Shown piece after piece: positions 1-17,625 of a DNA stretch of 44,188 bases (within the stretch, counting starts at the first letter, position 1; each line of letters begins with the position of its first letter). A program made the position numbers and the translations under genes. The notes below the pieces were generated by a model. The model saw only the letters and a list, made by a program, of their open reading frames with translations, was not told the origin of the DNA and made no database searches. The stretch is from the IMG/VR virus record IMGVR_UViG_2541047701_000003. One strand, 5' to 3'. This DNA is from a virus (Duplodnaviria; Heunggongvirae; Uroviricota; Caudoviricetes).

Positions 1-342
1 ATGATGAGAAAAAGTATTCTGGCGTTTCTGTTACTCACCAGTTCTGCAGCTGCGCTGGCGGCACCGCAGGTGATTACCGTCAGCCGTTTTGAAGTGGGTA
101 AAGACAAATGGGCGTTTAATCGCGAAGAGGTGATGCTGACTTGCCGACCGGGTAATGCTTTGTATGTCATTAACCCAAGTACCCTCGTGCAGTATCCTTT
201 AAACGATATCGCACAAAAGGAAGTTGCCAGTGGGAAGACTAAAGCCCAACCCATTTCGGTGATTCAGATTGATGATCCTAACAATCCCGGCGAAAAAATG
301 AGTCTGGCACCGTTTATAGAGCGAGCTGAAAAACTCTGTTAA
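1..342 (+). CDS. yebY: YebY-like secreted protein (DUF2511-type), host gene flanking the prophage
   Basis: 113-aa ORF with N-terminal signal peptide ([23 protein letters not shown]); recalled as near-identical to E. coli YebY, the neighbour of pphA; recall-based. Confidence 0.6.
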
Positions 343-377
343 TTACCTAAAATAGCCTTTTGATTTCCAATAAAAAA

Positions 378-412
378 CCGCCTCAGTTCTTTCACCAGAA
401 CGGGCGGTTTTT
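378..412 (+). terminator. Rho-independent terminator downstream of yebY
   Basis: Interrupted hairpin CCGCC..GTTCT/AGAAC..GGCGG followed by TTTTT. Confidence 0.5.
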
Positions 413-499
413 AACATTTAAGCTGATGACCACCACGCTTTTTATTGACCATTTTGCACGCAAACTGGAAAACCTGGCGTCGTCATCTATTCTTAAAGA

Positions 500-602
500 G
501 CAAGGCAACTAAGCCTGCATTAATGCCAACTTTTAGCGCACGGCTCTCTCCCAAGAGCCATTTCCCTGGACCGAATACAGGAATCGTATTCGGTCTTTTT
601 TT
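500..602 (+). ncRNA. sdsR: SdsR (RyeB) Hfq-dependent small RNA, 3' end reconstituted by phage sequence; 5' end approximate
   Basis: Sequence ...gcctgcattaatgccaacttttagcgcacggctctctcccaagagccatttccctggaccgaatacaggaatcgtattcggtcttttttt matches my recollection of SdsR including its terminator hairpin CCGAATAC/GTATTCGG plus U-run. Confidence 0.6.
577..602. repeat. attL core (direct repeat shared with attR)
   Basis: acaggaatcgtattcggtcttttttt here versus acaggaatcgtgttcggtctcttttt at 43096..43121; adjacent to integrase gene. Confidence 0.6.
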
Positions 603-637
603 AATTGTATTTAAAATCAATTAGTTGCAACCGTCTC

Positions 638-666
638 CCCGAAATTACTCGAAATTTACTCGAATT
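638..666. promoter_or_regulatory. Candidate integrase arm-type binding sites (left arm)
   Basis: cccgaaatt followed by actcgaaat and actcgaatt between attL core and int; a similar cccgaaatt..actcgaaaa pair occurs at 42952..42980 near attR. Confidence 0.35.
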
Positions 667-733
667 TCTGTATTCCGGTCTTTTTTGGTTATATCACAAC
701 CAAAACACATTTAACAATCCATTTACGTTAAAA

Positions 734-1810
734 TCAGAGCAGTAAGTACGTTTTTTCTCTCTCATCAAGATACATTTTTGTTGTCTTCTCCGATGTGTGG
801 CCAAGTAGACGTTGAGCAAATTCTTCCCCACATGTTTCTTTGTACAATCGTCCAGCCAGGCTTCTGATCTCGTGAAAAGTTGGTGGGTTTTCACTGAACT
901 GGATACCTGTTAATTTTCTGGCTGCGACAAATTTCTTTGTCAGGCCGTCCGGGTGAATGCTGCCGTCAGGGCTGTTTTTTCTAATCCCGGCACTGATTAG
1001 ATAATCCCCCCTACTTACCATGCGGCACTGTTCAACTACTGCACCAAGTCGTAAACCAGCGACAGGAAGGCTGAGTGACAGGGGGATAGCAATCATCATT
1101 CCTGTCTTAATTTGCCTGATGTGGAGACGATCATCATAAATCTCACTGAACCGCATATTTGTTATGTCTTCGCGACGTTGTCCTGTTACAAGGGCTAAGT
1201 CCATAGCTAATGGGAACCATGTCGGAAGTTGATCTGCTGCCTCCCTGATGCAGTTGTATGTCTTTAGTTTCAGCCGTTCTCTTGTAACTACTATTTTCGG
1301 TGCTCTTGTTGGCGTTACTGGATTTTGAGATATACGTCCTTCAACAATGGCCTCGCGGAACATATCAGATAACACAGAACGCATTGATCCTGCCATCGTG
1401 TTTTTCCCTCCTTCAATCCACAAATCAAGAAACTCGGCAATATGGCGAGTGGTTATTTCTGTCAGTAAAACCCCTCCTAATTTTTCTTTTATTGTCTCCA
1501 GTTGATTTACCCGAATTTTATAAGTATTTCTGGACACTTTTCTCCTTATAAGAATCGTTTTGTAACGTTCAATCCAGTCTGCCATAGTAAATGAGTCGAA
1601 CCCTTTTAGTTTTTCAATTAAGGCAGCAGGAGAGTAGTTTTTGTATATATAATGATTTGCTTCAATTGCCTGCGCTACTGCATCTCTTCTTGAAATTTTA
1701 CCTAGTGTAAATTCTTCTTTCGTCAGAGGGTTGCGCCAGTAATATGCTTTGTCCCTCCTTCGATATGTTAAGTTTTTAGGCAAATTGGGATCGTATTTTT
1801 TCCGCTGCAT
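734..1810 (-). CDS. int: Tyrosine integrase, lambda Int family
   Basis: 358 aa; alignable by eye to lambda Int along its length ([29 protein letters not shown]-terminal catalytic motifs); adjacent to attL. Confidence 0.85.
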
Positions 1811-2057
1811 GTTTTAACTTCTCCAGTAACGGACTGTCTCTCCCTTGTCGCCCATTAGGCTGATGGTGTGTTATATCGGTATCAACCTTATTTGGGTTGA
1901 TATAGAAAGCTTCCGGAACCACCCTGTAACTCCTCCCGTGTAGTTCAGGTGCAGGATAAATGTTTCCATTCCTTGCCCATCGTCTCAGCGTTGATATTGA
2001 TGGTGGGTTATCCGGATATCTGAGTTTTCCCCACGTTTTGAGTGTCACAAGATTCAT
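1776..2057 (-). CDS. xis: Excisionase (Xis-like)
   Basis: Small basic protein immediately upstream of and overlapping int; start chosen at second ATG (MNLVTL...) which has AAGAGG at suitable spacing. Confidence 0.6.
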   Translation of the reverse strand: MNLVTLKTWGKLRYPDNPPSISTLRRWARNGNIYPAPELHGRSYRVVPEAFYINPNKVDTDITHHQPNGRQGRDSPLLEKLKHAAEKIRSQFA

Positions 2058-2163
2058 TGCCATACCTCTTACGATATGACCGCCAGTAAATATACAGAAT
2101 ACTGGCGGGTGTGGTTGATTTTTAATAATCAGCTATGAAGTTCTAATTTGTATATAATGCAAC

Positions 2164-2352
2164 TCACGAGGACAGAAGTTTCTCGCAATTAAAATTTATC
2201 AGCTTTACTTTCTGCTCTCTGGACACGCCTGCTTCTTTTTTCCCTGAGAGCATTTTTTCGCATTCTGATTTCGTTAATTTAGATTTTGAATATCTTGTCC
2301 AGTTAGTAGGAGTGCCACCTTCTTTTTCAATAGTGGCAGTTATTTTATACAT
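2164..2352 (-). CDS. Hypothetical small protein (position equivalent to Rac ydaC)
   Basis: 62 aa from ATG with GGAGG SD; overlaps stop of upstream Lar gene by 8 nt. Confidence 0.4.
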   Translation of the reverse strand: MYKITATIEKEGGTPTNWTRYSKSKLTKSECEKMLSGKKEAGVSREQKVKLINFNCEKLLSS

Positions 2353-2554
2353 GAACACCTCCATTATTATTTCCAGTAGTTCGTTTATTCCATCTTTCGA
2401 GTGCTTCTTTTTCACTTCCACCATAGCCAGTTCGGGATTCGCATCCGTTGCATTTTGCCCGGTAATATCCTGAAATGGCTTTCACCGTTACTGATGGACA
2501 ACCACAAAACGGACATGGTTTGACTTTTTCATACCGCATTGTCTTTTCTCTCAT
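2345..2554 (-). CDS. Lar-family restriction alleviation protein (zinc ribbon)
   Basis: 69 aa with CPFCG...C..C motif and WNKR, as remembered for Lar/RalR family. Confidence 0.6.
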   Translation of the reverse strand: MREKTMRYEKVKPCPFCGCPSVTVKAISGYYRAKCNGCESRTGYGGSEKEALERWNKRTTGNNNGGVHV

Positions 2555-2602
2555 AAAATAAAGTTTTGTTATGGCGGTGAGGCTACACCGCCATAGTAAA
2601 TA

Positions 2603-3655
2603 TCAGGAGCCGATATATTCTGGTTTCATATCTGTCAGTGTCGTTTTATACGCCTCATATAATTCTCCCAGATGTGGTCGTGCAGCATTCAGCGTATTTT
2701 CCAGAGCAATAAATTTTTGTTCTGCTTCTGGATCACCTGATGAAGGCAGGTCATTTATCATCTTCTCAATACGGGCAATAGCATTGAGACGGTGATGACG
2801 CTGAACCACTTTTCCTTTAAGTTCTGTGTAGAGAGCGCCAAGTGTATTTTTATGATCTTCCACTTCCTGGCGAAGTGCTGTTGTTTCTCCGGTGCTTTGT
2901 GCCTGCTCAATACGTTCACGGAAAGCACTGATCCAGTTTTCCCCGGCATCCTGCTCAATAATTGTTGTTTCACGTTCCGCACGGCAGGCGGATGTGTTTT
3001 TATGTTCCTGAACCGGATTAATGATTTTTTCCTGTGGTTCGTCCAGTTCGTCCCGGGTGTACACTCCAAGAATCACTTCAGGGCAATAAAGGCGCGCCCA
3101 GCGTTTCAGAGCCAGATAGGCAAGCTGCTGGCGAGGATCATCGGCCCATAACGTTGAGTTACGTGTTCTGGCCTGCGCCAGAAGTAACTCCAGTACGCGT
3201 GGCTTGCTCTCTCCGCGTAGTGTTGCCTGGACGCGAACACCGATCCCGTTTTCATCGGCCAGCTTCCAGCCAGGTACACGATATTCTTTCCCCTTGTCGT
3301 TCTTCCTGATTTCAAATTTCCCGATAATTTTTTCCCACGGCCCGAACCAGTCATATTCAATACGCCCGGTTAGCGGCCCACGAGTACTGATTACGGCATT
3401 AACCAGTTGCGCTTCATATCCGAGCACACCATTCACAACGAAAGTTTTCTGAGCTACTGCGTAAGGGTTCATTTGCCACTGCATCGCCTGCATGGTGATG
3501 GCCATGCAGTCTGATGGATTTCCCCGGAGGTGTTCCGGTACAGTAGCCATGCCGGAAGCCATTACCTGGGAAAATGTCTGAATTGCAGCCAGGGACTGAG
3601 GGCTGAAAACCGCAACATTAGAGTTAATATTTTCTTGTTGAGTTAATTCGTTCAT
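2603..3655 (-). CDS. Phage single-strand annealing recombinase (RecT/Red-beta-like)
   Basis: 350 aa directly downstream of recE; segment RQQLAYLALKRWARLYCPEVILGVYTRDELDE resembles the conserved Red-beta region; GGAAGGA SD. Confidence 0.6.
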   Translation of the reverse strand: MNELTQQENINSNVAVFSPQSLAAIQTFSQVMASGMATVPEHLRGNPSDCMAITMQAMQWQMNPYAVAQKTFVVNGVLGYEAQLVNAVISTRGPLTGRIEYDWFGPWEKIIGKFEIRKNDKGKEYRVPGWKLADENGIGVRVQATLRGESKPRVLELLLAQARTRNSTLWADDPRQQLAYLALKRWARLYCPEVILGVYTRDELDEPQEKIINPVQEHKNTSACRAERETTIIEQDAGENWISAFRERIEQAQSTGETTALRQEVEDHKNTLGALYTELKGKVVQRHHRLNAIARIEKMINDLPSSGDPEAEQKFIALENTLNAARPHLGELYEAYKTTLTDMKPEYIGS

Positions 3656-3666
3656 TGTGTCCTTCC

Positions 3667-6600
3667 TCAGATGCTCAGTGCTTCAAGACGACGAAGATCA
3701 AAGTCGTTTAATTCGTCGGTATAACTTTCGGTAATCGGTGCTGGCCAGTTGTTTGTCTCCAGAGCTTCGTTTATCTGTCGTAGTGTCCGGCGATATTCCT
3801 GTCGACCAAGTTCCAGGAGTTCCTGCGAGGCTTCCACGACGGCCACCCAGTGATAGCCAGCATCTTTGTTGACGAAGATCCAGAAAAATTTGTCCAGGTT
3901 TGCCACATCGCAATACATTGCTGCGCTGAGGTGATAATCACGTTCAATAATTTCACGGTGCAGGCGATCTTTCAGTCGTTCCTGTCGCACATAACCGAGG
4001 CTGACTGACTTCACGTCGGCGCAAATGCTTTCGTATGGCAGCCGGATTTCGATATCAGGACGGACCCTGATTTCCAGCCCGGTTTCTTCATCAAACCCGA
4101 AATAGCTGATTTCAGATTTGCGATCCGGGTGGTTGAGTAGCCTTGCTGCATCGGTATTGTTTTGCAGTGCCGCGTGAATATTTTTTGCCTGTTCATACAT
4201 ATCCGGACTGATAAACGTTTTCCCGGCGTTTTCTTCTTGCTGGCGTTTTTGCCAGTCCTCCAGCGTCACCAGTTCCGGGCGAATTTTCCGCGCGATTTCG
4301 GTTAATTGCTCTTTTGTGCCACTGATGTTGTAAGGCAAAGATTTAGCACGTTCTTTTTTTGCCAGTTCTGGGTCTACAGCTTCAATTTGATCCAGAAGCT
4401 GCTCCCGTGCTCCACTGGTTTTCAACAGAGGAGGGAGGCTTGCGTTGTATTCTTTAATACAGGCTTTCATTGCTGATGCTGTGTGTTTTTCCCCCTCAGG
4501 AATACGCCGAAATTCCACCGGAAGCGAACCGTAAAGGATGCCTGTTTCTTCGGCCCCAGCACTTATAGACAGTGGCTGTATAAGAGTGCTGTTGTAGCTT
4601 TCGATCCACTCTTTCATCTGCTCTGGTGTCATCAGTGCTGGCAGACTGGCATTGTGTTTTTTAATGATGGCGATCAGTTCGTTAGAAGTAGTAACCACAT
4701 ATTCAGGAACCGGTACCGGAATGGCATATTCATCAGCGAATTTATCCGTTTCCAGAACATAGCTGTGAATGATCCGCCCACGCAGCAGTGCATCACTTTC
4801 CTCGTTCGGAATAGTTCCGGCAATGTGCCGCCCGTGGTAATACATCAGGCTGATACGGGCATCCTTCAGCATCGTGCTGCTTATTCCGTTGGCGGAGTGA
4901 TAAACCTCGTTCGGGAGGTTTTCATAGCGGCCAGGCTCGAAATATGATGGCCACATGATTTCAGTTACTACAGGTGCTGTCGCTTCACCAGTTTCATCAC
5001 CGCAATCGCGATGCAGATCGCTGCCAGCATTCTCATTGTGCGGATGTTCAGGGCCTTCCATTTCCTCCGGCTCTTTTTCCTGAGATTCATCCAGATTTTC
5101 TTCATTAAAGGTTTCCTGATACGTTGCGTCGCCCATCACCGCGCCACAGTCAGGACAGTTGCCGCCGCCAGTCTGACCGCAGGCGGTGCAAACTTTCTCC
5201 GTTTCCTGTTGTTGCACTACTGGCTCAGGCTGTTTCGTTTCTGGCTCGTTTTGTTGCGTATTTGGGTCGTTCTGTTCCGTTTCTGGCTGATTCTGGTACA
5301 CAGAATCGCGGGTCTGGATCCCCTTAACCCATTTCGGATCATTCGGGTCGCTAATCCCTTCAACAAATTCTCCGCGAGAGGCAGCCAGTAATTTGTCTGC
5401 ATCGACAGGATTTTTGGGCGGAATGTTTTTCCGGGCTTCATAGAGTTCTGCCCGCAGTTTCTGATATTTCGCATCAACAGAATTTACCTGTGACTGAGCA
5501 TCCAGCGGCTGCGTGTCCTGATGATGTTCAGTTGCATCCGGTTCCACTGTTTCAGCCGTTGCCTGTTCATCTGCCATTGCGCAAGATGGTTGCAGTTTTT
5601 CTTCATCATCCTGTTTTTCTTCTTCTGTTACACGCTGCGGCATCGGGGCAGAGGAACGACCGCAGGCAATATCCACGATTTCTGGATCAGGGTTGGCATG
5701 ATCAGTTTCAGTCAGTACTTTGTTAAGATATTCAGTGACGTGTGCGGGGATAACCTCGATCCCAATTGGTGCTTCTTTTACGGACGCAACCACGATGGCG
5801 CGGGAATAATCCAGCCCGCCAGGCATGGTGATGAATTTGTCGCGGAAAACAGAAAAGGGCGGTTTATTTTCAGCGATAATTTCCTCGACACGTTTAGCGT
5901 GTGCCGGATGAAGGTTATAAATGTCCACGTCCATTGAACGAGCCAGTACGCCAGTCGCTACGTCGCGCGCCAGTGACGTCAGATCGTGAACGAAACCTTC
6001 GCCGCGATCGGTGAGGTTCCCGCCGCCAGCATTAGCGCCGGAAGCCGTGCGCGTGATGCATGAAACACGATTTCCTTTCATCCACTCTTTTGTCAGCAGA
6101 CCGCGATCGGTGTAGTCTGCGTCCAGGTATGCTTCGAAAAAAGCAGTCATCAGCCCCAGGCTTGAATTGCCTGGATTAGGGAAAACTCTGTCAGTATCAC
6201 GCACCAGTTTGTGGAGATCGCGAATTTCCAGCGGGTCGAGCAGGCTGGTTTTGTGGGAAACAGCCAGGGCAGTAACAGCTGGTAGTTCTTCAGCTCGTGC
6301 AATGTGTAATGCCTGTAGTTCGTCGCGTGAAACGTGCGTTACCGGTTTTTCGCTGCCGTGTTGAGCAAGCCAGCGAATGGGCAGCTCCTGACCGGAAATC
6401 GGGAGTAGCATATTCTCCTCAATCTCCGTCATGTCTTCGCCATTAACATTGGTATTGTCAGTGCTGGCTGGTTTGTCCTGCGCAGAGGATGAGGGCGTGA
6501 TAAATACCATTGTGATGCCATCTTCCCCGCCTTTTTCGTAACGGTTGCAGAATTCCGTATCAAATACGCCTTCTGGTGGAAGGTCATCAACAACGGGCAA

Positions 6601-6795
6601 ATTGACGCGAACAGGTTTTTTAAAGTCATCTTCATCGTAGCCAGCATCGTCAATCGCAACAGCACCACGGGAGATGGCAATGGATAATTTTTTCGCTTCA
6701 GCCCAGTAGAAACCGCCTTTAATACCGAGACGTTTTCTTACTTTGTCATTTTTTGCTTCGTAATACAGTGGGTAAACTTGTTTATCGGTGCTCAT
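3667..6795 (-). CDS. recE: Exodeoxyribonuclease VIII (RecE-like)
   Basis: 1042 aa; long stretches ([43 protein letters not shown]...) recalled as RecE of Rac; C-terminal nuclease domain. Confidence 0.7.
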
Positions 6796-6894
6796 TGTTT
6801 TTTAACCTCAACTCAGATTAAAATTAATGCGAGTGATGAATAAATGTCCCAGGTTCTTCACTCAGGCCTGCACAGTGTGCAGGCTTTCTTTTTT

Positions 6895-7170
6895 TCAGAT
6901 TTCACCTTTTAATTTCATTGCAATCAGAGTTGCCAGAAATTCGGCTTTTTTTTCTGCGGGCAGATTCTTTCCTATGTGCACCAGACACATTTTTTTAACA
7001 CCATCGTTAAGTGTTTTAACGTTGCCTGATGGACCGTCGATATCAACCACAGTGAATGGGGTTTCTTTATTTTCTGTCTTAATCACGTAGCCAATACGCT
7101 TTCCTTCCAGGGTAACTTCGTGAACAATGTCATCAGTAGTAACAACAGTGGCTTCATAACTGGTAATCAT
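6895..7170 (-). CDS. RacC-like hypothetical protein
   Basis: 91 aa from ATG with AAGGAGAAAAAC SD; size and position match racC of Rac. Confidence 0.45.
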   Translation of the reverse strand: MITSYEATVVTTDDIVHEVTLEGKRIGYVIKTENKETPFTVVDIDGPSGNVKTLNDGVKKMCLVHIGKNLPAEKKAEFLATLIAMKLKGEI

Positions 7171-7244
7171 GTTTTTCTCCTTAATTAAGGTTGAGCGAAT
7201 CCCTGCCATTGCTGGCATAAATTCAGTTTCGGATAGTCAGTTAA

Positions 7245-7415
7245 TTAAAGTTCGTGTGCCATCTGGTCTTTTTCGGCACAGATTTCACTACAATATTTTT
7301 TCATTTCCGTCGTTGGTATAACTCCACGCATGAAATGAAGTGGTCTTGTAATGATTTTGCTCTCTTCAATTTCTTTATTGCAAAGGTGATAAGCACATTT
7401 TATTTTCTTAGTCAT
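7245..7415 (-). CDS. YdaE-like small zinc-ribbon protein (not in supplied ORF track, below 60 aa)
   Basis: 56-aa [23 protein letters not shown]...CSEICAEKDQMAHEL with two CxxxC pairs; ATG overlaps the kilR stop (TAATG coupling). Confidence 0.5.
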   Translation of the reverse strand: MTKKIKCAYHLCNKEIEESKIITRPLHFMRGVIPTTEMKKYCSEICAEKDQMAHEL

Positions 7416-7636
7416 TACCATGACTCCGCCTTTACAGGTAAACCATCACGACCGAGGAAGACTCTAATCATGCAGTCAGAAATGCATGTTTTTGTAGTCA
7501 GGCTACGAATATAAAGTTTTCGCTTTTTAATATTGTTTGCCGAGGCGATATATGTCCGACCTTCATGAAGAACATAATCGCCAGGGGTCACACACTGACG
7601 TGGTATTTCATCAGTTCCGAAGTGATGAGCAATCAT
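7415..7636 (-). CDS. kilR: KilR-like FtsZ inhibitor (Rac kil)
   Basis: 73 aa from [44 protein letters not shown]..., recalled as near-identical to Rac KilR; GGAG SD before this ATG. Confidence 0.7.
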
Positions 7637-7988
7637 AATTATCTCCATTTTTACAAATGAATTTTGTCGATGCGGTGCCTGGTGCCTCCAGGTGACGTTA
7701 ACCAGTTAACAATTAACGCCGGATAATCCACCCATAACACTGATGCTTTTAACTGTGCCGCGTGCGCTTAGCCGCATTCACCGCATCACAAAATTCACTT
7801 TAAAAAGGGGCGGCAGGGCAGCCACGGAGTAGAACTGATGCCGCCAAAGACTACACATAGCAATGTCGTTATTTACAACCGGAGGCGCACTCCCACCATT
7901 TAAATTTAACAGACAAGACCGACTCTTTATGAATACCGGAAATGCGCCTTCGTGTTGTGCGCCTGTCTTTTTACCACTTCAGGCTCGG

Positions 7989-7997
7989 TGGTATACT
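7989..7997 (+). promoter_or_regulatory. Extended -10 promoter element (TGgTATACT) upstream of the 8032 gene
   Basis: TGGTATACT about 35 nt upstream of the ATG at 8032. Confidence 0.4.
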
Positions 7998-8031
7998 GGA
8001 GTTCTCACACAACCAGTAATAAGGTATTCCG

Positions 8032-8226
8032 ATGGATAATAAAGACAAAGCCTGGCTACTTGCTTTAGCTTTCAGCATCAGATCGCAGCGAGAAACAACT
8101 CATCAAGAATTTTTCTCGGAAATCGAGAATGCTGAGAATGAGTTTTTGTCACTACTCAATGAACGTGATGCTAAAAAAAGCGCCGATTCACTTAAGGCTT
8201 GGGCGAAACTAGGCTCTTCAAAATAA
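8032..8226 (+). CDS. Hypothetical small protein, opposite strand to the early-left operon
   Basis: 64-aa ORF with own promoter-like element; predicted helical/amphipathic. Confidence 0.4.
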   Translation: MDNKDKAWLLALAFSIRSQRETTHQEFFSEIENAENEFLSLLNERDAKKSADSLKAWAKLGSSK

Positions 8227-8410
8227 TTGCTTCTGTAGCGGCATGAACAACTGTTTTTGCCGCCTCTTCAACTTCCTTGTCTGGACGACCAGCCTTTACT
8301 TTTTCTGCAATGACATCCAGCACAGTTGGAAGAACCTTGCTAATAAGCATGGCTGCCACATCTTTGCTGCACAATTGACCGTTAATAACAACCAGATCTT
8401 CACCAACCAT
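8192..8410 (-). CDS. Hypothetical small protein
   Basis: 72 aa from ATG with AAGGGG SD (MVGEDLVVINGQLCSK...); 3' end overlaps the convergent 8032..8226 ORF by 35 nt. Confidence 0.45.
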   Translation of the reverse strand: MVGEDLVVINGQLCSKDVAAMLISKVLPTVLDVIAEKVKAGRPDKEVEEAAKTVVHAATEAIILKSLVSPKP

Positions 8411-8653
8411 CTTTTTTCCCCTTAACGCCGGGTGGCGGAACGTTTTATCTACTGCGCTTTGTATCAATCAACAACTGCCGTCATGTTCGTATGCCTCAGG
8501 CTGGCTACTTAGCCCTGTTCAGTGGCTGGATAACTCGAGGTATTGTCCTGCCGTTCTCTGGTGGGGCGTTGTTTGGATATGCTTATTAAACACAATGCGT
8601 TTTCTTATGTCAACACGAAATGTGTTTTATGGTGAGTGTCATATGATGATGGT

Positions 8654-8679
8654 ACAAAAAAGCCCGCTGATAGCGGGCT
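8654..8679 (-). terminator. Rho-independent terminator after the repressor gene
   Basis: On minus strand AGCCCGC-tatca-GCGGGCT followed by TTTTTT. Confidence 0.5.
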
Positions 8680-8709
8680 GATTGGCATATTACTGTGATA
8701 GCAAGATCA

Positions 8710-9129
8710 TTACTCCGGTGGGGGATTATCTTTAAGCCTGCCTCTCAAATATTTTTCTACATACTCATCGATTTCTTTTAGCCGGACTTCAAATAGCTCA
8801 ATCATTCGTTGTTGTTCTGAGCCCGGTAGCTGGTTAAACAACTCAAGAAGTTTTCGTTGGGATTCATTTAACCACAATTCAGAAGATTCCTGTTCTCCAA
8901 ATAGGAGCTCAGGAGGAGATATGCCAAGTGCCTTTCCCAATACGACAGCGTCATGCACTCCAACATTTCTGCTGCCCGCCTCATAGTTACCTATACGCGA
9001 TTGCGTCCATCCGCAGATTTCAGCAAGTTTTCCTTGAGATAAACCAAGCTTCTGCCTGCGCTCTTTAAGACGCATTGCAATTTTGTCATTGAGCCTACTA
9101 GCGGCAATTTTTTCGTTTTCTTTTTCCAT
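8710..9129 (-). CDS. Prophage repressor, XRE-family HTH (cI/RacR-like)
   Basis: 139 aa; HTH LGLSQGKLAEICGWTQSRIGNYEAG; divergent from Cro-like gene across an operator-containing intergenic region. Confidence 0.7.
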   Translation of the reverse strand: MEKENEKIAASRLNDKIAMRLKERRQKLGLSQGKLAEICGWTQSRIGNYEAGSRNVGVHDAVVLGKALGISPPELLFGEQESSELWLNESQRKLLELFNQLPGSEQQRMIELFEVRLKEIDEYVEKYLRGRLKDNPPPE

Positions 9130-9140
9130 TGCATCCTTGT

Positions 9141-9155
9141 ATCACGAATCGTGAT
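9141..9155. promoter_or_regulatory. Candidate operator palindrome in the divergent promoter region
   Basis: ATCACGA-A-TCGTGAT perfect palindrome; second palindrome ACACA-agg-TGTGT at 9188..9200; TTGACC -35-like at 9177..9182. Confidence 0.45.
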
Positions 9156-9225
9156 TTATATAAAACACAAAACAGCTTGACCATATAACACAAGGTGTGT
9201 TTAAAATTGTCATCGGAGGTTTTCA

Positions 9226-9468
9226 ATGAACAAAATTTCAACATATCGAAAACAGCTTGGGCTGTCTCAAAGACAACTTGCTGTTCAGTTAGGGTGGATA
9301 CAAAGCCGACTGGCAAATTACGAAGCAAATTTTCGTACCCCTGGACTAGAGGAGTGCAGAAAAATTGTTTCTACCCTTAATCGGCTTGGCGCTCATTGTG
9401 GACTTGACGATGTATTCCCCCCAGACGGTAAGCATAGCGAAAACAGCATAGGAGCGGTTGATTCATGA
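9226..9468 (+). CDS. Cro-like HTH regulator (YdaS-like)
   Basis: 80 aa; HTH LGLSQRQLAVQLGWIQSRLANYEA; GGAGG SD; first gene rightward of operator region. Confidence 0.6.
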   Translation: MNKISTYRKQLGLSQRQLAVQLGWIQSRLANYEANFRTPGLEECRKIVSTLNRLGAHCGLDDVFPPDGKHSENSIGAVDS

Positions 9469-9887
9469 AAATCAGGCATGAGCACATCGAATCAGTGTTG
9501 TTAGCCCTGGCAGCCGAAAAAGGGCAGGCGTGGGTCGCTAACGCAATTACTGAAGAATATCTGCGCCAGGGGGGCGGCGAATTGCCCCTTGTACCAGGCA
9601 AGGACTGGAACAATCAGCAGAATATCTATCACCGTTGGTTGAAAGGTGAAACGAAAGCGCAAAGGGAAAAAATTCAGAAACTGATCCCTGCGGTTCTGGC
9701 AATTCTTCCGCGCGAGCTGCGTCACCGACTCTGCATCTTCGATACCCTGGAACGCCGTGCATTACTGGCGGCGCAGGAAGCGTTGAGTACGGCAATTGAT
9801 GCGCATGATGATGCAGTCCAGGCCGTTTACCGGAAAGCACATTTCAGCGGTGGTGGGTCGCCCGGCGATTCTGTCGTAGTGCATTGA
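9465..9887 (+). CDS. YdaT-like protein (early regulator/toxin family of Rac)
   Basis: 140 aa, ATGA-coupled to Cro-like gene; size and position match ydaT of Rac. Confidence 0.5.
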   Translation: MKIRHEHIESVLLALAAEKGQAWVANAITEEYLRQGGGELPLVPGKDWNNQQNIYHRWLKGETKAQREKIQKLIPAVLAILPRELRHRLCIFDTLERRALLAAQEALSTAIDAHDDAVQAVYRKAHFSGGGSPGDSVVVH

Positions 9888-9932
9888 TTGAAATTAATCG
9901 TGCCGGATTGTTTTGTTCGGTATCAGTTAAAT

Positions 9933-10350
9933 GTAACGCTGCGAGCGTTACAAGGTGAAAACAAATGGCTTCAAACTGGATAAAGCTCGAGGTTATTACG
10001 CCGGATAAGCCGGAAATATTCAGGCTTGCTGAGATTCTGAATATTGATCCAGATGCCGCATTAGGGAAGGTTATTCGCTTCTGGGCATGGGCGGATCAAC
10101 AAATGATAGACGGTAATGCAGATTGTAACGCTCGCGGCGTTACAAAAAGTGCAATAGATCGCATCACTTTTATGGCTGGTTTTGCTGATGCGTTAATTCA
10201 GGTTGGATGGCTGGTCGAAAATGACGGTGGGCTTTCTCTACCTAACTTTGAACGTCATAACGGGAAAAGCTCTAAAAAACGGGCGGTTACAAACGAGCGA
10301 GTTACAAAAATACGCGAACTGAAACGAAAAGGTAACGCTGCCAGCGTTAC
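9933..10350. repeat. Iteron-like palindromes, probable origin of replication within and upstream of the initiator gene
   Basis: GTAACGCT-n3-AGCGTTAC at 9933..9951, 10125..10143, 10332..10350 plus GTTACAAA direct repeats at 10286 and 10301. Confidence 0.45.
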
Positions 10351-11095
10351 ACAAACGGATCAAAAAGCGTTACCAGAGGAAGAGGAAGAGGAAGATATAA
10401 ATACTGATCTAACCCATCCCAAACCCTTCCCTTCCGGAAGGGAGTTCCGGGATTTTGTGGCTGGAGTGCTTGAGGGGAGATTATCTGGCGGTACTGCAGC
10501 GGAATTTTGTAATTCTGCGGTGGTTGCGTTGCAGGCTGCTGGCCTGGATGTCTGTCGTGAGTATCCGGTGCCAGAGCGTGGTGACGGCTGCGGAGGGCGG
10601 ATTGATATCGTCGTGACTGACAGGAACGGTGTCCGGTGTGGGATCGAGCTTGACCGAAATTCTCCGCGACAGAAATCACTGCTCAAAATCAGTGCTGTTG
10701 AAACCGGGATATGTGTCTTGCGGCGCAGTGATATCGCAAGGCACACCGAGCAGGGAATTCTGGTTATCGGTGGGGCTGTTCGCCAGAAAAAATTTGACCC
10801 GTTGTCTGTTGATCTGCCCGACTGGTTGCCAGAAACACTCTGGCATGAGTGGGTTCAGTTCAGGCAGGCATTGCGAAAACCGATTCGAACGGAGCAGGGC
10901 GCTAACGGGGCGATACGGGAGCTGGAAAAATTCCGCCAGCAGGGTTTTACCCCTGAGCAGGTGATTAGACACAGCATCGCCAATGAATACCAGGGCTTGT
11001 TCGCGCCGAAAGGCGTTCGGCCTGAGACGTTACTCCGACAGGTTAACACCGTCTCGTTTCCAGACAGTGCTATCCCGCCAGGCTTCAGGGGGTAA
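9965..11095 (+). CDS. Phage replication initiator (lambda O-like role)
   Basis: 376 aa; contains iterons in its 5' part, acidic EEEEEED linker, followed by DnaC-like loader. Confidence 0.6.
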   Translation: MASNWIKLEVITPDKPEIFRLAEILNIDPDAALGKVIRFWAWADQQMIDGNADCNARGVTKSAIDRITFMAGFADALIQVGWLVENDGGLSLPNFERHNGKSSKKRAVTNERVTKIRELKRKGNAASVTQTDQKALPEEEEEEDINTDLTHPKPFPSGREFRDFVAGVLEGRLSGGTAAEFCNSAVVALQAAGLDVCREYPVPERGDGCGGRIDIVVTDRNGVRCGIELDRNSPRQKSLLKISAVETGICVLRRSDIARHTEQGILVIGGAVRQKKFDPLSVDLPDWLPETLWHEWVQFRQALRKPIRTEQGANGAIRELEKFRQQGFTPEQVIRHSIANEYQGLFAPKGVRPETLLRQVNTVSFPDSAIPPGFRG

Positions 11096-11101
11096 CAGAC
11101 C

Positions 11102-11848
11102 ATGAAAAATATTGCGACAGGAGGCGTTCTGGAGCGTATCCGCAGACTGGCCCCACCACATGTAACCGCCCCATTCAGAACGGTTGCGGAGTGGCGCGAG
11201 TGGCAACTTGCTGAAGGCCAGAAACGTAGCGAGGAGATCAACCGCCTGAATCGTCAGTTGCGGGTGGAAAAAATTCTGAATCGCTCAGGCATCCAGCCGT
11301 TGCACCGTAAATGCTCGTTTGCGAATTACCAGGTGCAGAACGACGGCCAGCGATACGCGTTAAGCCAGGCGAAATCCATCGCCGATGAACTGATGACCGG
11401 GTGTACAAATTTTGCGTTCAGCGGAAAACCTGGTACCGGGAAGAATCACTTAGCGGCAGCTATCGGGAATCGCCTGCTGAAAGACGGTCAGACAGTGATT
11501 GTGGTTACCGTGGCTGATGTTATGAGCGCCCTGCACGCCAGCTATGACGACGGGCAGTCAGGCGAAAAATTTTTGCGGGAGCTGTGCGAAGTGGATCTGC
11601 TGGTTCTTGATGAAATTGGCATTCAGCGCGAGACGAAAAACGAGCAGGTGGTGCTGCATCAGATTGTTGATCGCCGGACAGCGTCGATGCGCAGCGTGGG
11701 GATGCTGACAAACCTGAACTATGAGGCCATGAAAACATTGCTCGGCGAGCGGATTATGGATCGCATGACCATGAACGGCGGGCGATGGGTGAATTTTAAC
11801 TGGGAGAGCTGGCGTCCGAATGTTGGTCAGCCAGGAATTGCGAAGTAA
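11102..11848 (+). CDS. DnaC/IstB-like AAA+ helicase loader
   Basis: 248 aa; Walker [16 protein letters not shown] and Walker B LLVLDEIG. Confidence 0.75.
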
Positions 11849-11870
11849 TTTTTACCGGGAGGAAATTTTA

Positions 11871-12632
11871 ATGGAGACTGTTTTTGACGCCCTGAAAGCA
11901 ATGGGAAAAGCCACATCCATAGAACTTGCTGCGCGACTTGATATCAGTCGTGAAGAAGTGCTGAGCGAACTATGGGAACTGAAAAAGGCTGGTTTTGTTG
12001 ATAAAAGCGCGTACACCTGGCGTGTGGCTGATAACAACGTTCAGCAGGAACAGCCAGCGCAGGCAGAACAGCCGGAAGAAACTACCACGGCAACAGTAGC
12101 GAAAATCTCAGAGTGCGATTTAACCGCGACGATTGAACAACGCGGACCACAAACGGCGGATGAGCTGGCTGCGTTGTTCGGTACCACATCACGCAAAGTA
12201 GCTTCAACGCTGGCAATGGCAATCAGCAAGGGGCGTCTGATTCGCGTAAGTCAGAACGGTAAATTTCGTTACTGCATACCGGGCGATAATTTACCAGCAG
12301 AGCCGAAAGCTGCATCGGTAACGGAAACTGATGGTAAGGCCTTTCCTCAGCCCGCAGGTGTTGCGTTACCAGTACAGGAAGCGGCAACACAGGAAGATAT
12401 TAAAACAGAAACTGTGGCGGACATTGTGCAGTCGTTGCCATCGTTTACTGAAATGCAAGCGGATGACCTGATTTTACCATCACTGCATATGGCAAACCGC
12501 GAGCTGCGCCGGGCAAAAGGTCAGGTTCAGAAGTGGGAGCGAGTCTGCGCCGCGCTGCGGGAGCTGAATAAACACCGGGATATTTTCAGTTCGATTGCTG
12601 ATATTCCGGTTCATTCACCGACAACAAAGTGA
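11871..12632 (+). CDS. Hypothetical protein with two winged-helix-like segments
   Basis: 253 aa from ATG with GGGAGG SD (METVFDAL...). Confidence 0.5.
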
Positions 12633-12647
12633 TCTCCGGAGGTGCTT

Positions 12648-13070
12648 ATGACAAGAGCATTTACACCAGAAGAGCGGGAAAAAATTAAGGGGCTGATCGT
12701 GGAATTCGTACGCCTTAACGGACGAGGCACGATTCGGCAGTTATCGGATGAAATTGGTGTCAGTCATGCGTCTGTCGGTCGTTTATGCATGGAGCTGGCC
12801 GCCAGTGGTGATGTTTACAATTCCGGTTACGGAGTATTCCCGTCTGAGCAGGCGCGCAAGGACTGGCAAAACGCCCGCAAAAAACTCTCAAGGGCAAAGC
12901 TGAAGAAACCATCTGTGGTTGATCCGGACCTTATCTGGCTATTACCAGACGGCGAAATACGCCGCTACGACAGGCGCCTAAACATAATCTGTCGCGAGTG
13001 CCGGAAGAGTGAAGCTATGCAGCGTGTACTGGCTTTCTATCAGGGTAATTTTCAGGAGACGGTACTGTGA
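12648..13070 (+). CDS. Hypothetical protein
   Basis: 140 aa from ATG with GGAGG SD (MTRAFTPEE...). Confidence 0.5.
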   Translation: MTRAFTPEEREKIKGLIVEFVRLNGRGTIRQLSDEIGVSHASVGRLCMELAASGDVYNSGYGVFPSEQARKDWQNARKKLSRAKLKKPSVVDPDLIWLLPDGEIRRYDRRLNIICRECRKSEAMQRVLAFYQGNFQETVL

Positions 13071-13127
13071 GTGAAATTAGCTATCAGGCTTCAATTACCG
13101 CTGGCATTCGCATCAAAGGAGAGGAGC

Positions 13128-13484
13128 ATGGAAATAAAACCAGAGGATGAGTTAAGCAATATCGTTTTATTTCCGGTAAAAGAGGATGACCCTCGTAATC
13201 AGGTTAATTTTCTTTATGAGCCATCGGAAAGACCATATTGTCATCACGCCTCTGTCCGGGTTGACGAAAAAGAGCGTCAGGTCCGCTGTAAAATCTGCGG
13301 TGCAGTTGTGGAGCCATTTGACTGGATGCTCTCTGTGGCGAAAAGAGAAACTAGGCTGGCAGATGATGTAAAGCTATTGCGCCAGGAGGAACAGGAAAGG
13401 CGGAAAAATATAGAAAAGTTAATTCAGATTGAGCGTAACGCGAAAGCGCGGATACGCAGGGTGACAAAATCCAGAACTGAATAA
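13128..13484 (+). CDS. Hypothetical zinc-ribbon protein
   Basis: 118 aa from ATG with AAAGGAGAGGAG SD; CHH...CKIC motif. Confidence 0.45.
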   Translation: MEIKPEDELSNIVLFPVKEDDPRNQVNFLYEPSERPYCHHASVRVDEKERQVRCKICGAVVEPFDWMLSVAKRETRLADDVKLLRQEEQERRKNIEKLIQIERNAKARIRRVTKSRTE

Positions 13485-13579
13485 TTAAATTTAGCACTGT
13501 AAATAAAATCAAATCCTTAACCGGAGGGATTTCTGCACCCTCAGAACATCAGGAGGCCGTCCGAAAGGGCGGTAGTGAA

Positions 13580-13762
13580 ATGCGAAAACTCAAAATAATT
13601 ATTGAAACGGGAATAGCCGGTGGAGATTTCGAGGATGAATTCGAAGTGGATGATGATGCAACACCAGATGAAATACAGGATGAAGCTAAAGATATTTTCT
13701 TTAACTACTGCAATTACTCATACCACGAAATAAAAGACGAAGAGGAAGAACAAAATGGCTGA
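13580..13762 (+). CDS. Hypothetical acidic small protein
   Basis: 60-aa ORF, very acidic; weak RBS. Confidence 0.3.
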   Translation: MRKLKIIIETGIAGGDFEDEFEVDDDATPDEIQDEAKDIFFNYCNYSYHEIKDEEEEQNG

Positions 13763-13931
13763 TTTTGGTTCAACTAAATATAACGCCAGTTTTGAAGAAT
13801 GGCATGAACTGTTAATGGATTATGCAGAGTTACGCGGTGGAAGTGCCGCTGATGCTGAAGCATGGCGTGATGATTATGAAGCAGGGAAAACACCGGTCGA
13901 AGCATATTGTGATGAGTGGGGCGATGAATGA
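13755..13931 (+). CDS. Hypothetical small protein (not in ORF track)
   Basis: 58-aa ORF MADFGSTKYNASFEEWHELL...; start overlaps previous stop and its stop overlaps the next ATG. Confidence 0.35.
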   Translation: MADFGSTKYNASFEEWHELLMDYAELRGGSAADAEAWRDDYEAGKTPVEAYCDEWGDE

Positions 13932-14287
13932 GCGAGATTAATTATCAGGAAGGGCATGAAAAGGCAGGGCAGGCAAAACCAGTGGCATGGCGATATCGCT
14001 ACGTGAAAAAAGGCGTTACAGACTTTCAGGGGAAGCAGTGGGTTGGTGACTGGAAATATGTCCCGACAAAAGAGGATTGTAACGACAGACCAAACTATGA
14101 AATTCAGGCGTTATTCACGGCCCCGCCAGCTTCGGTGACATCAGAAGGACTGGTTAAAGCTGTGCGCTTTTATGAACAGGTACGGCGTGAGGATCCGCCA
14201 GTTGAAACCGGAGCATGGAAAGACGCTATTGACTGGGTGCTCAAAGAGGCTTGCCTGGCTGTAAATATAGGCATCAAAGGAGGGTGA
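13928..14287 (+). CDS. Hypothetical protein
   Basis: 119-aa ORF, translationally coupled. Confidence 0.5.
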   Translation: MSEINYQEGHEKAGQAKPVAWRYRYVKKGVTDFQGKQWVGDWKYVPTKEDCNDRPNYEIQALFTAPPASVTSEGLVKAVRFYEQVRREDPPVETGAWKDAIDWVLKEACLAVNIGIKGG

Positions 14288-14288
14288 T

Positions 14289-14576
14289 ATGGCAACTTTG
14301 CAGGAATTAATCGACCTGACGCCAGAACAGGAAAAAGCGTGGAATCGCCTTGTAAAGGCTGTAAAGGATTTCAGGGCAGCCGGAGGAAAGTTTTATAGCG
14401 TCCTGGACACGCTGAGCGCATACAACGGCGAGCACGTTGCCAGCATTGATAACGATAAGGGCTACCACACTGCAAGCGTCTATATGCCTAGCATTGATGC
14501 GCCAGGGCTAACCAGTTGGGCTGATGATTGGCACGGCATCACGCTGAAAGATGGGGTTGAAGTGGATGAGGACTAA
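14289..14576 (+). CDS. Hypothetical protein
   Basis: 95-aa ORF with GGAGGG SD. Confidence 0.5.
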   Translation: MATLQELIDLTPEQEKAWNRLVKAVKDFRAAGGKFYSVLDTLSAYNGEHVASIDNDKGYHTASVYMPSIDAPGLTSWADDWHGITLKDGVEVDED

Positions 14577-14579
14577 CAC

Positions 14580-14750
14580 ATGACTACTTTTACCGACAAA
14601 GAACTGATTAAAGAAATCAAAGAGCGCATAGGCAGCCTGGACGTCCGAGACAATATTGAGCGTCGGGCTTATGAAATTGCGCTGGCATCGCTGGAAGCAG
14701 AGCCGGTTGTGTTCTGGTTTGAAAAATATCAAGAAGGGGCTACGGCATGA
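14580..14750 (+). CDS. Hypothetical small protein, paralog of N-terminus of next gene (not in ORF track)
   Basis: 56-aa [21 protein letters not shown]...[10 protein letters not shown]; ATGA-coupled to next gene. Confidence 0.4.
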
Positions 14751-15091
14751 CGACTTTTACCAGAGAGCAGTTAATAGCTCACGCAGAGGAGACTATTGAA
14801 GCACAGAGACTGTGCATACCGGGCACAATCGACCATGACATCATCCGCACATATAAGATGGATATTGCTGTTCTGGAAATCGCACTGGTATCGCTGGCAG
14901 CAGAGCCAGCCGGTAAATTGCATGAATACAAACCAGTGGGATATCAGCGTCTGGTCGATGAGTTAACCATGCTGGTAAAGCAGTTAACCTGGCAACTGAG
15001 GAAAGCGAAGCCAGACTGCAAATTACCGGATAAGGCGATGAGTTATCTGGAGCGGAACGGACTGATAAGCGTGGAGGATATTTTACGATGA
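14747..15091 (+). CDS. Hypothetical protein
   Basis: 114-aa [18 protein letters not shown]...[10 protein letters not shown]. Confidence 0.5.
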
Positions 15092-15171
15092 CCTGGCCTG
15101 AAGCATTAACAACGGTAGGAATTGCGATGGCGGTGACGCTGATGGTGTATTCGATTTGCCGCTGGGGATAA
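15088..15171 (+). CDS. Possible small hydrophobic membrane peptide (27 aa)
   Basis: [27 protein letters not shown]; GGAGGA SD; ATGA overlap with upstream stop. Confidence 0.25.
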
Positions 15172-15325
15172 AAACGGTTTGCGGGAAAAGGAGAGTTAAG
15201 TAGAATTGCTGCGGGTGCTTGAGGCTATCTGTCTCAGGCATGAACACCAAAAGGCAGATAGAGAAAAGCCCCAGTTAACATTACGCGTCCTGCAAGACGC
15301 TTAACATTAATCTGAGGCCCAATCT

Positions 15326-15538
15326 ATGTCTCACAAATGTAGGTTAGCCTCTTACGTGCCGAAAGGCAAGGAGAAGCAGGCTATGAAGCAGCAAAAGGCG
15401 ATGTTAATCGCCCTGATCGTCATCTGTTTAACCGTCATAGTGACGGCACTGGTAACGAGGAAAGACCTCTGCGAGGTACGAATCCGAACCGGCCAGACGG
15501 AGGTCGCTGTCTTCACAGCTTACGAACCTGAGGAGTAA
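15326..15538 (+). CDS. mok: Mok-like reading frame (N-terminal extension of hok)
   Basis: 70-aa ORF in frame with hok, as in chromosomal mok/hok loci. Confidence 0.45.
   Translation: MSHKCRLASYVPKGKEKQAMKQQKAMLIALIVICLTVIVTALVTRKDLCEVRIRTGQTEVAVFTAYEPEE
15383..15538 (+). CDS. hok: Hok/Gef-family type I toxin
   Basis: 51 aa MKQQKAMLIALIVICLTVIVTALVTRKDLCEVRIRTGQTEVAVFTAYEPEE, typical Hok sequence; 5'/3' fold-back complementarity in flanking RNA. Confidence 0.75.
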   Translation: MKQQKAMLIALIVICLTVIVTALVTRKDLCEVRIRTGQTEVAVFTAYEPEE

Positions 15539-15608
15539 GAGACCAGGCGGGGGAGAAATCCCTCGCCACCTCTGATGTGTCAGGCATCCTCAACGCACCC
15601 GCACTTAA

Positions 15609-15628
15609 CCCGCTTCGGCGGGTTTTTT
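15609..15628 (+). terminator. Rho-independent terminator of hok mRNA
   Basis: CCCGC-ttcg-GCGGG followed by TTTTTT. Confidence 0.6.
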
Positions 15629-15813
15629 GTTGCGCGCTGAATACGCAGGGTGAAAAATAACCATATATTTGATTATATACACAACAAAAAATAAAAGTCA
15701 TTGTATCTGCACATTAAATAATCAAATATACGGCGTGAAATAAATATTTTTCAGATTAATATTTTTGTCTCTATGTGGATATAACCGTTTGTACTTATAA
15801 ACTCGGAGGCATC

Positions 15814-16026
15814 GTGGAAAAAATAAAGAAACTATTTAGTTGCAAATACGCAGTCATACGTCGTGATGACCTGTCAGTTATAGTCGAAATGGATTACTTC
15901 CCTGAAACCCCAAAATCAATGATGTATCGTAATGGTCGAAAGGCAATTTTTTTACCGATGAGGTTAAGTGACATTATGGGAAATGATAAACTGCTGGATG
16001 AATTGCGAGTCAGAGCATCCTGTTAG
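15814..16026 (+). CDS. Hypothetical protein downstream of an AT-rich promoter region
   Basis: 70 aa from GTG with GGAGG SD; start uncertain (ORF track begins at 15775). Confidence 0.35.
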   Translation: MEKIKKLFSCKYAVIRRDDLSVIVEMDYFPETPKSMMYRNGRKAIFLPMRLSDIMGNDKLLDELRVRASC

Positions 16027-16097
16027 TATTGGCATTAATTCTGGTATACTACATAACGGGCTGAACACCCATTCTACTGCGCCAGCGGAGAACTACG

Positions 16098-16697
16098 ATG
16101 GCGCATATACAACTGGTCAAACAAACCTCTTCCGGATTACTTCTCCCGGCGACGCCGGAGAGTTGCGATTTTTTGCATCAAATCAAAATAGGTGAGTGGA
16201 TACACGCAGACTTTAAGCGTGTGCGTAACTACGCATTCCACAAGCGTTTTTTCAAACTCCTGCAACTGGGATTCGATTACTGGACTCCGGTCGGTGGGGC
16301 GATCACGCCTCGCGAACGAAAACTGGTATCAGGCTTCGTTGATTACCTGTGCGAATCAGTAGGTCGGGAACACACTCCAGCCCTGAGTGATGCCGCAGAG
16401 CAATACCTTAATACAGTTGCGACATGCAGAACCCGGGATACGGCATTGCTAAAGTCGTTTGACGCTTTCCGCGAGTGGGTAACCATTCAGGCCGGATTTT
16501 ACACCGAGCATATTTATCCTGATGGTAGTCGTGGGCGCAGGGCAAAATCTATCGCATTTGCGAACATGGACGAAACCGAGTTTCAGCAGGTTTATAAATC
16601 TGTACTGAATGTGCTGTGGAACTGGATCCTGTTCCGTAAATTTTCCTCTCCGGAGGAAGTCGAAAATGTGGCCGCGCAGTTACTGGAGTTTGCGTAA
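16098..16697 (+). CDS. DUF1367-like protein (YbcN-like, nin region)
   Basis: 199 aa; size and synteny with following YbcO-like and Q-like genes as in DLP12-type late control regions; recall-based. Confidence 0.5.
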   Translation: MAHIQLVKQTSSGLLLPATPESCDFLHQIKIGEWIHADFKRVRNYAFHKRFFKLLQLGFDYWTPVGGAITPRERKLVSGFVDYLCESVGREHTPALSDAAEQYLNTVATCRTRDTALLKSFDAFREWVTIQAGFYTEHIYPDGSRGRRAKSIAFANMDETEFQQVYKSVLNVLWNWILFRKFSSPEEVENVAAQLLEFA

Positions 16698-16987
16698 TGG
16701 TGGATTTACGTAAAGCGGCGCGGGGGCAGATGTGCACCGTCAGAATTCCTGGCTACTGCAATCACAATCCCGAAACTTCTGTGCTGGCGCATTACAGGCT
16801 GGCGGGGACGTGCGGAACAGCGACAAAACCACACGATATGCAGGCAGCGATTGCCTGTAGCTCATGCCACGATTTAATCGACGGGCGGGTAAAAACCAGC
16901 GATTACACCAAAGAAGAATTACGCCTGATGCATGCAGAAGGTGTTTTTCGCACACAAGAAATCTGGAGAAAGGAAGGTTATTTATGA
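16697..16987 (+). CDS. DUF1364-like protein (YbcO-like, putative nuclease, Cys-rich)
   Basis: 96 aa with C..C / C..C..H motifs; ATG overlaps previous stop. Confidence 0.5.
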   Translation: MVDLRKAARGQMCTVRIPGYCNHNPETSVLAHYRLAGTCGTATKPHDMQAAIACSSCHDLIDGRVKTSDYTKEELRLMHAEGVFRTQEIWRKEGYL

Positions 16988-17538: not shown

Positions 17539-17564
17539 CTCAATCTGTTATCCGGGGCTATATT
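17535..17564 (+). promoter_or_regulatory. Candidate late promoter pR'
   Basis: TTGACT (17535..17540) - 18 nt - TATATT (17559..17564) directly after Q stop. Confidence 0.4.
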
Positions 17565-17625
17565 CCTCACGCGCCAGCAAAATCTGGCGTCGGGATTGGC
17601 GTCCTGGATAGAGACCGCGACAGAT

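Follow-up and report, generated by a model that had tools for sequence, protein, structure and literature searches.

Background

The closest system so far described is that of Salmonella ΦW104 (Balbontín 2008, J Bacteriol 190:4075), whose attachment site, according to the accounts of that work in PMC7380047 and PMC3333887, corresponds to the last 23 bp of the small RNA gene ryeB and is internal to ryeA; by the same accounts, lysogeny changes the 5' part of ryeA, ryeA transcription is lower and ryeB is higher. The ryeA/ryeB site, an insertion hot spot in Salmonella, is also summarised in PMC3603311 and PMC10969437, and "RyeB" also serves to denote the target site of genomic islands (PMC10111431). 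Integration at the 3' end of tRNA and tmRNA genes (Williams 2002, as reported in PMC3603311) is comparable, in that the dyad-symmetric stem-loop of a small RNA serves as attB and the 3' part brought by the phage restores the gene. Finally, ryeE/cyaR in E. coli (PMC3603311) is another locus at which a small RNA gene with a stable hairpin is a prophage hot spot.

We have analysed a stretch of 44,188 nucleotides (the window) in which a prophage occupies the ryeB (sdsR) site in E. coli, and we consider it very probable that site-specific recombination inserted a temperate lambda-like phage there, in the Rho-independent terminator of sdsR. The target is that of ΦW104 as described, i.e. the last 23-26 bp of ryeB/sdsR: both the block of exact attP/attB identity (577-587) and the longer repeat (577-602) fall within the last 26 nt of sdsR, ryeB is made whole again, and phage DNA takes the place of the 5' part of ryeA, which is displaced likewise. 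Salmonella integrases encoded at the same spot are 72% identical to that of the window, ΦW104 itself being known here by its published description. Our locus differs from ΦW104 in its E. coli host, its Rac-like early backbone and its baseplate-type tail; moreover, the E. coli attB and attP differ at two core positions, and the dependence of pphA on read-through from sdsR adds a predicted effect. In contrast to the tRNA/tmRNA cases, the target here is the terminator of a regulatory small RNA with an overlapping antisense gene, so that the locus is not a member of that class; it works alike, with the peculiarity that restoration is one-sided (sdsR is kept, ryeA is split) because the antisense gene overlaps the target.

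Since the integrase clade and the site are the same as in Salmonella, we rate the E. coli case as already known: as far as the available accounts go, the site, the mechanism and the RyeA/RyeB effect have been published for Salmonella, and E. coli is a further host. We found no explicit description in the literature of an E. coli case at the sdsR site. The original prediction, made from the window alone, had overlooked the Salmonella precedent, and also the expected loss of sdsR read-through for pphA.

The integrated element

The element and its bacterial flanks comprise the following features.

1..342, plus strand: yebY, bacterial left flank (open reading frame aligning with K-12 yebY; the YebY/CopD neighbours are the same in all related loci)
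588..43095, no strand: prophage DNA (inserted unit of 42,519 bp, from the spacing of the repeat)
734..1810, minus strand: tyrosine integrase of lambda type (PF09003, PF22022 and PF00589; lambda Int structures at E=1.4e-71)
1776..2063, minus strand: excisionase (PF07825 Exc, E=6.5e-14; so annotated by RefSeq in the closest genome), whose gene overlaps the start of int
43256..43912, plus strand: pphA, bacterial right flank, which the insertion places 42.5 kb away from the sdsR promoter

The integrase gene abuts the junction, as had been noticed at the outset, its open reading frame (734-1810, minus strand) ending 131 bp from the end of sdsR. The protein has an arm-binding domain (PF09003, 28.1 bits for a cut-off of 22), a core-binding domain (PF22022) and a catalytic domain (PF00589) in Pfam, and its alignment with lambda Int (5j0n/1z1b) shows the catalytic R, K, H, R, H and Y to be conserved; we take its motifs GQRR, IKTG, FHEIRS, LLGH and KMY to lie opposite lambda R212, K235, H308, R311, H333 and Y342. 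It is about 40% identical to the integrases of HK022, lambda and 434, and the layout is also that of lambda and HK022: a three-domain Int with the same catalytic residues, xis adjoining int, and int adjoining the P' arm.

In gene content, the prophage combines an early region resembling that of Rac with lysis genes, terminase, head genes and a tail of baseplate type. FDAARGOS_1289 is the closest genome, with 99.8-99.9% identity to the prophage outside a mosaic segment at 10.4-18.0 kb; its RefSeq annotation lists int, xis, ralR, recT, recE, kil, repressor-like regulators and replication genes, together with hokD, holin, lysozyme, terminase, portal, head, baseplate-type tail and tail fibre. In the mosaic segment itself (10410-18026, immunity and replication) the two sequences are 93% identical in patches, are interrupted by gaps and differ by 894 bp in net length; these differences are due to module exchange between related prophages.

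E. coli prophages are mostly defective, and one could thus imagine that the element is a fixed, defective remnant, its att repeats being fossils and neither integration nor excision taking place at present. The two frameshifted genes and one partial gene annotated inside the element in the closest genome, together with the mosaic at 10.4-18.0 kb between strains, speak for such a reading. However, the open reading frames of int and xis are intact with conserved catalytic residues, both att sites are intact, every functional module is present, a phage genome deposited as complete (PP818812.1) has an integrase 98% identical to that of the window and a matching attP, and the element has a patchy distribution (4% of genomes, in unrelated serotypes). 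We therefore think a mere remnant unlikely, and retain the hypothesis of a temperate phage that entered by site-specific recombination.

Several other observations were made along the element. Over int, attP and the early region, the prophage shares 94-98% identity with PP818812.1, which was deposited as "Actinobacillus phage vB_Apl-pPE4"; the att core of this phage genome matches the sdsR of enterobacteria, and one may doubt the host given for it, Actinobacillus pleuropneumoniae. At 2168-2554, the RalA antitoxin small RNA (219 bits in Rfam) adjoins the ralR toxin gene (Lar-type Pfam match), forming beside xis a type I toxin-antitoxin pair of Rac type. Other Rfam RNAs are DicF (7808-7859, minus strand), sok (15213-15388, plus strand, by the annotated hokD) and an isrK / C4 / a1b1 cluster (17558-17756, plus strand), of the kind involved in P1/P7-type antisense immunity. 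Between the tail-fibre gene and attR lie about 690 bp without annotated gene (42400-43090), with a two-way terminator-like hairpin (42407-42439), a terminator-like site on the minus strand (42589-42570) and, at about 42783-42834, the remaining 3' part of a gene of which PP818812.1 has an intact copy. An IS3-type frameshift pseudoknot (Rfam ALIL) is found upstream of xis (locus 837-953) in two other copies of the prophage, those of Shigella flexneri and E. coli ECMA0423, suggesting that an insertion sequence landed in them.

A complete sdsR at the left junction

The following features are found at the junction between bacterial and phage DNA on the left side.

499..602, plus strand: sdsR (ryeB), full length, rebuilt at attL (Rfam RF00111 and mapping of the K-12 annotation)
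568..603, plus strand: SdsR Rho-independent terminator, with stems 568-578 / 586-596, loop AGGAATC (579-585) and U tail, predicted at -15.8 kcal/mol

The original prediction recognised here a complete SdsR with its terminator hairpin, and this is borne out by a full-length match to RF00111 (503-602, plus strand; all 100 model positions, 118.1 bits for a gathering score of 38) and by a hairpin (568-596) followed by a T run. The K-12 annotation of sdsR, 104 nt long, maps onto 499-602; its place is between yebY and pphA, and RyeA lies opposite (RF00101, SraC/RyeA, matches the window at 606-462, minus strand, with 180 bits), and the promoter region (420-498) is near-identical to its K-12 counterpart. 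The window has A at 499, the annotated 5' end of sdsR, for G in K-12. The RefSeq annotation of FDAARGOS_1289 contains no small RNA at this junction.

The copy of sdsR at attL is thus a rebuilt gene whose 3' stem and U tail are supplied by the phage, and it differs from that of K-12 by two phage-derived substitutions, 588 G to A and 597 C to T. Could these two changes make the rebuilt gene non-functional, so that lysogeny would inactivate SdsR? The differences are real, but the Rfam match is full length at 118 bits, the predicted energy of the hairpin with A588 and T597 is identical (-15.8 kcal/mol), the U tail gets longer and not shorter, the A variant is the state of the attL sdsR in Salmonella, Citrobacter, Cedecea, Serratia and Yersinia, and RyeB is reported, in the account given by PMC7380047, to be higher, not lower, in Salmonella lysogens. 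Inactivation of SdsR is in our opinion very improbable, and we keep to the view that the gene restored by the phage probably still works.

The core repeat and the point of strand exchange

The cores, and the four attachment sites that can be compared through them, are as follows.

572..603, no strand: attL core (attP and attB exactly identical over 577-587; 579-585 presumed to be the 7-bp overlap)
43091..43122, no strand: attR core (base of phage type at 43095; G43107 and C43116 of bacterial type, shared with K-12)
attB (K-12): GGACCGAATACAGGAATCGTGTTCGGTCTCTTTTTATCTGT
attP: TTGACGAAAACAGGAATCGTATTCGGTCTTTTTTTAATTGT
attL (window): GGACCGAATACAGGAATCGTATTCGGTCTTTTTTTAATTGT
attR (window): TTGACGAAAACAGGAATCGTGTTCGGTCTCTTTTTATCTGT

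The last 26 bp of sdsR (577..602) had been seen to be repeated with two mismatches at 43096..43121, and this is indeed their sole recurrence in the window, for 0.00 expected from 100 shuffles. The similarity extends beyond the 26-mer (572-608 versus 43091-43127, 86% identity, at a spacing of 42,519 bp). It had also been proposed to examine whether a prophage-free yebY-pphA region consists of the left flank, one core and the right flank: this is exactly the situation in K-12 MG1655, which has no insert and a single copy of the core, the left flank of the window matching K-12 up to the core and the right flank from the core onward. Conversely, PP818812.1 (47.5 kb) has an uninterrupted attP, located between the last tail-region gene and int, which equals the P arm of the window (left of 43095), the core and the P' arm of the window (right of 588); it has the A and T variants seen in attL, whereas attR keeps the G and C of K-12. 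Terminator hairpins and T runs being common and of low complexity, one might still attribute the repeat to chance or to a terminator-like similarity unrelated to recombination, the foreign DNA having come otherwise, but we give this practically no credence, since no match is expected by chance in the shuffle test, the two copies bound exactly the DNA that is absent from K-12, matching attP sites exist in phage genomes from three sources (PP818812.1 among them), and an integrase lies beside the same core in seven genera.

It follows that attL consists of the bacterial left arm and the phage right arm, and attR of the phage left arm and the bacterial right arm, and that the phage attP nearly duplicates the final 26-32 bp of sdsR. 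The idea of a tRNA-style reconstitution of a 3' end, applied to a small RNA gene, is thus upheld by the single core of K-12, by the matching attP and by the unchanged energy of the hairpin.

Because E. coli attB and attP differ at two core positions, the position of the crossover can be read, taking the attB of the host before integration to have been K-12-like. As attL and attR are reciprocal chimaeras of attB and attP, strand exchange took place inside ACAGGAATCGT (577-587), a block which includes the loop of the sdsR terminator hairpin. A tandem locus in Yersinia, described below, allows this to be refined: its similarity to an sdsR-containing locus ends exactly at the base before AGGAATC, which narrows the exchange to 578-587, containing the 7-nt terminator loop. 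By analogy with lambda and with the att sites in tRNA genes, the loop is probably the overlap region, and the stem halves of the terminator, CCGAATAC and GTATTCGG, are probably the inverted core sites. Int would bind these two halves and exchange strands in or beside the loop AGGAATC (579-585), presumably assisted, as in lambda, by the CGAAAT arm repeats, IHF and Xis. The location is unlike that of lambda, whose core is in the gal-bio spacer and not in the terminator hairpin of an RNA.

Candidate arm-type sites

Beside the two cores, the following candidate sites and conserved blocks were noted.

615..627, plus strand: candidate H', IHF-consensus-like (AATCAATTAGTTG, read from the sequence), with CA....TT columns invariant across genera
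638..667, plus strand: candidate P'1-P'3, tandem arm-type repeats CCCGAAATT / CTCGAAATT / CTCGAATTT, with invariant CGAA(A/T)T columns
670..686, plus strand: conserved pseudo-core GTATTCCGGTCTTTTTT, similar in sequence to the core's 3' half
42941..42981, plus strand: candidate P-arm arm-type sites TCTGAAATA, CCCGAAATT and ACTCGAAAAA, from motif clustering and partial recurrence in the attP of other phages
42987..42999, minus strand: conserved TAACTAATTGAAT block, candidate IHF site, with invariant columns and the IHF consensus with one mismatch on the minus strand

The original prediction had pointed to short arm-type-like motifs flanking both cores, and such motifs are present at 638-667 on one side and at 42952-42960 (CCCGAAATT) and 42972-42979 (ACTCGAAA) on the other; the presence of an arm-binding domain in Int and conservation across genera speak in the same direction. 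On the P' side, the three CGAA(A/T)T elements are invariant in 10 junction sequences from 7 genera, in an alignment in which the core-proximal spacer has diverged, and the arm-type motifs can be considered well supported. On the P side, the repeats are less regular in the three attP sequences compared, but two other attP sequences, from Salmonella phage ZC-S1_prp and the Flyfo siphovirus Tbat2_3, likewise contain CTCGAAA and a CGAAAT element, and arm-type motifs are plausible. Over the whole window, the motif CYCGAAWWT is not enriched (6 found for 3.7 expected); four of the six matches are within about 150 bp of the two cores. The argument for arm-type sites is therefore that the motif is clustered and conserved, not that it is enriched across the window.

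The arrangement recalls that of lambda and HK022, with three putative arm repeats in tandem, at a distance of about 55-85 bp from the centre of the core, and an IHF-like site in the interval. It departs from lambda in the arm motif, which is CGAAAT and not the lambda arm sequence, and in the extra pseudo-core after the third repeat. The block GTATTC(C)GGTCTTTT (670-686) is invariant across the same 10 sequences from 7 genera. Beyond the third arm repeat, the somewhat longer segment CGAATTTCTGTATTCCGGTCTTTTTT (659-688) contains again CCGAAT and ATTCGG, the half-sites of the core, separated by 6 nt and not by 11 nt, and this has been kept in seven genera while the neighbouring DNA has diverged. 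We considered a role as back-up RNA terminator for this pseudo-core (659-688) and rejected it: the folds are weak and inconsistent between genera.

An integrase clade tied to the sdsR site

A protein search revealed a large clade of integrases, 60-74% identical to that of the window, across Enterobacterales. A contig scan with the integrase returned only two near-identical loci, the wider set coming from the protein search and contig look-ups; six clade members and the two near-identical loci were looked up in this way, and 12 loci (Int 63-95% identical) were scanned for SdsR, from Escherichia, Shigella, Salmonella, Cedecea, Serratia, Yersinia and two species of Citrobacter (C. koseri, C. portucalensis). 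At 11 of them, a full SdsR is found 80-135 bp from the int stop codon with its 3' end facing int, and yebY and then copD lie beyond it. The more distant of these integrases, those 63-74% identical that are beside sdsR-yebY, belong to Citrobacter, Salmonella, Cedecea, Serratia and Yersinia. The integrase clade is thus tied to the sdsR site across Enterobacterales.

The twelfth locus, without adjoining sdsR, is the Yersinia tandem case mentioned above. In this Yersinia enterocolitica locus (2560-2900), integrase and P' arm are joined at the core to the arm of another element, which also has CGAAA motifs, and this indicates that two elements occupy the site in tandem. Of 5426 complete E. coli genomes, 228 (about 4%) have the sdsR-int junction, O26:H11, O103 and O111 strains among them, and 5191 have the uninterrupted site.

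Expected consequences for RyeA, SdsR and pphA

Whereas sdsR is restored, the gene on the opposite strand is split in two.

369..602, minus strand: body of ryeA (sraC), without its own promoter and first 38 nt (RF00101 and mapping of K-12 RyeA)
43122..43159, minus strand: first 38 nt of RyeA, start site at 43159 (K-12 annotation and identical sequence)

K-12 RyeA (272 nt) maps to 43159..43122 joined to 602..369. Because it starts 38 nt past the 3' end of sdsR, which corresponds to 43159 on the attR side, its promoter and first 38 nt are separated from sdsR by 42,519 bp; the original prediction of a promoter-proximal part removed to a distance of about 42 kb was thus correct. We infer that the promoter lies at about 43160-43200 on the minus strand, just upstream of the start site. 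A single-base difference from K-12 is seen in the 5' part of RyeA at 43145 (GAAGGGAATG, versus GAAGGAAATG in K-12). Transcription of RyeA at attR would read into the P arm, the next terminator-like site on the same strand being that at 42589-42570. A promoter scan of 350-2200 found no sigma-70-like site for the orphaned RyeA body, and neither promoter nor terminator was predicted between int and this body (602-369). On the plus strand, there was no clear terminator fold beyond that of shuffled sequences at attR (z = -0.7) or at attP (borderline, z = -2.3).

In K-12, the ryeA promoter is sigma-70-dependent, ryeA transcription interferes with sdsR, RyeA promotes the decay of SdsR, and pphA is transcribed mainly by read-through from the sigma-S promoter of sdsR (PMC6610125). 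In the lysogen, the sigma-70 promoter of ryeA and the first 38 nt of RyeA would remain at attR, reading into phage DNA, and both full-length RyeA and the interference of convergent transcription with sdsR would be lost, so that SdsR should rise. At the same time, pphA would lose its main source of transcription, i.e. sdsR read-through. Judging from the work on K-12 and Salmonella, we thus expect the lysogen to have more SdsR, no normal RyeA and less pphA; an effect of this insertion on pphA was not found in the literature, as far as we searched.

One can go further, on much less certain ground. Since no terminator is predicted between int and sdsR, int transcripts should run antisense over sdsR as far as the RyeA terminator. 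The 3' tail of the int mRNA might then be fully complementary to SdsR, and pairing with this stationary-phase RNA might trigger cleavage of the int mRNA. Lysogeny would at the same time de-repress SdsR and silence pphA in some 4% of E. coli, O26, O103 and O111 strains among them. We offer this as a speculation that is quite improbable as a whole; if true, it would be a prophage-state counterpart of lambda sib retroregulation, in which excision would be tied to sigma-S.

Conclusion

As far as it is described in the accounts available, the Salmonella work of 2008 showed both the principle and the RyeA/RyeB effect, so the present case changes no open question. It is nevertheless a clean example of a phage that uses the terminator of a small RNA as attB and in which, of an overlapping sense/antisense pair, one gene is restored and the other is split. 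It predicts that levels of SdsR, RyeA and pphA would differ between strains, the prophage being at this site in about 4% of E. coli genomes, including Shiga-toxin-producing lineages, and is therefore relevant whenever regulation by small RNAs is compared from one strain to another.
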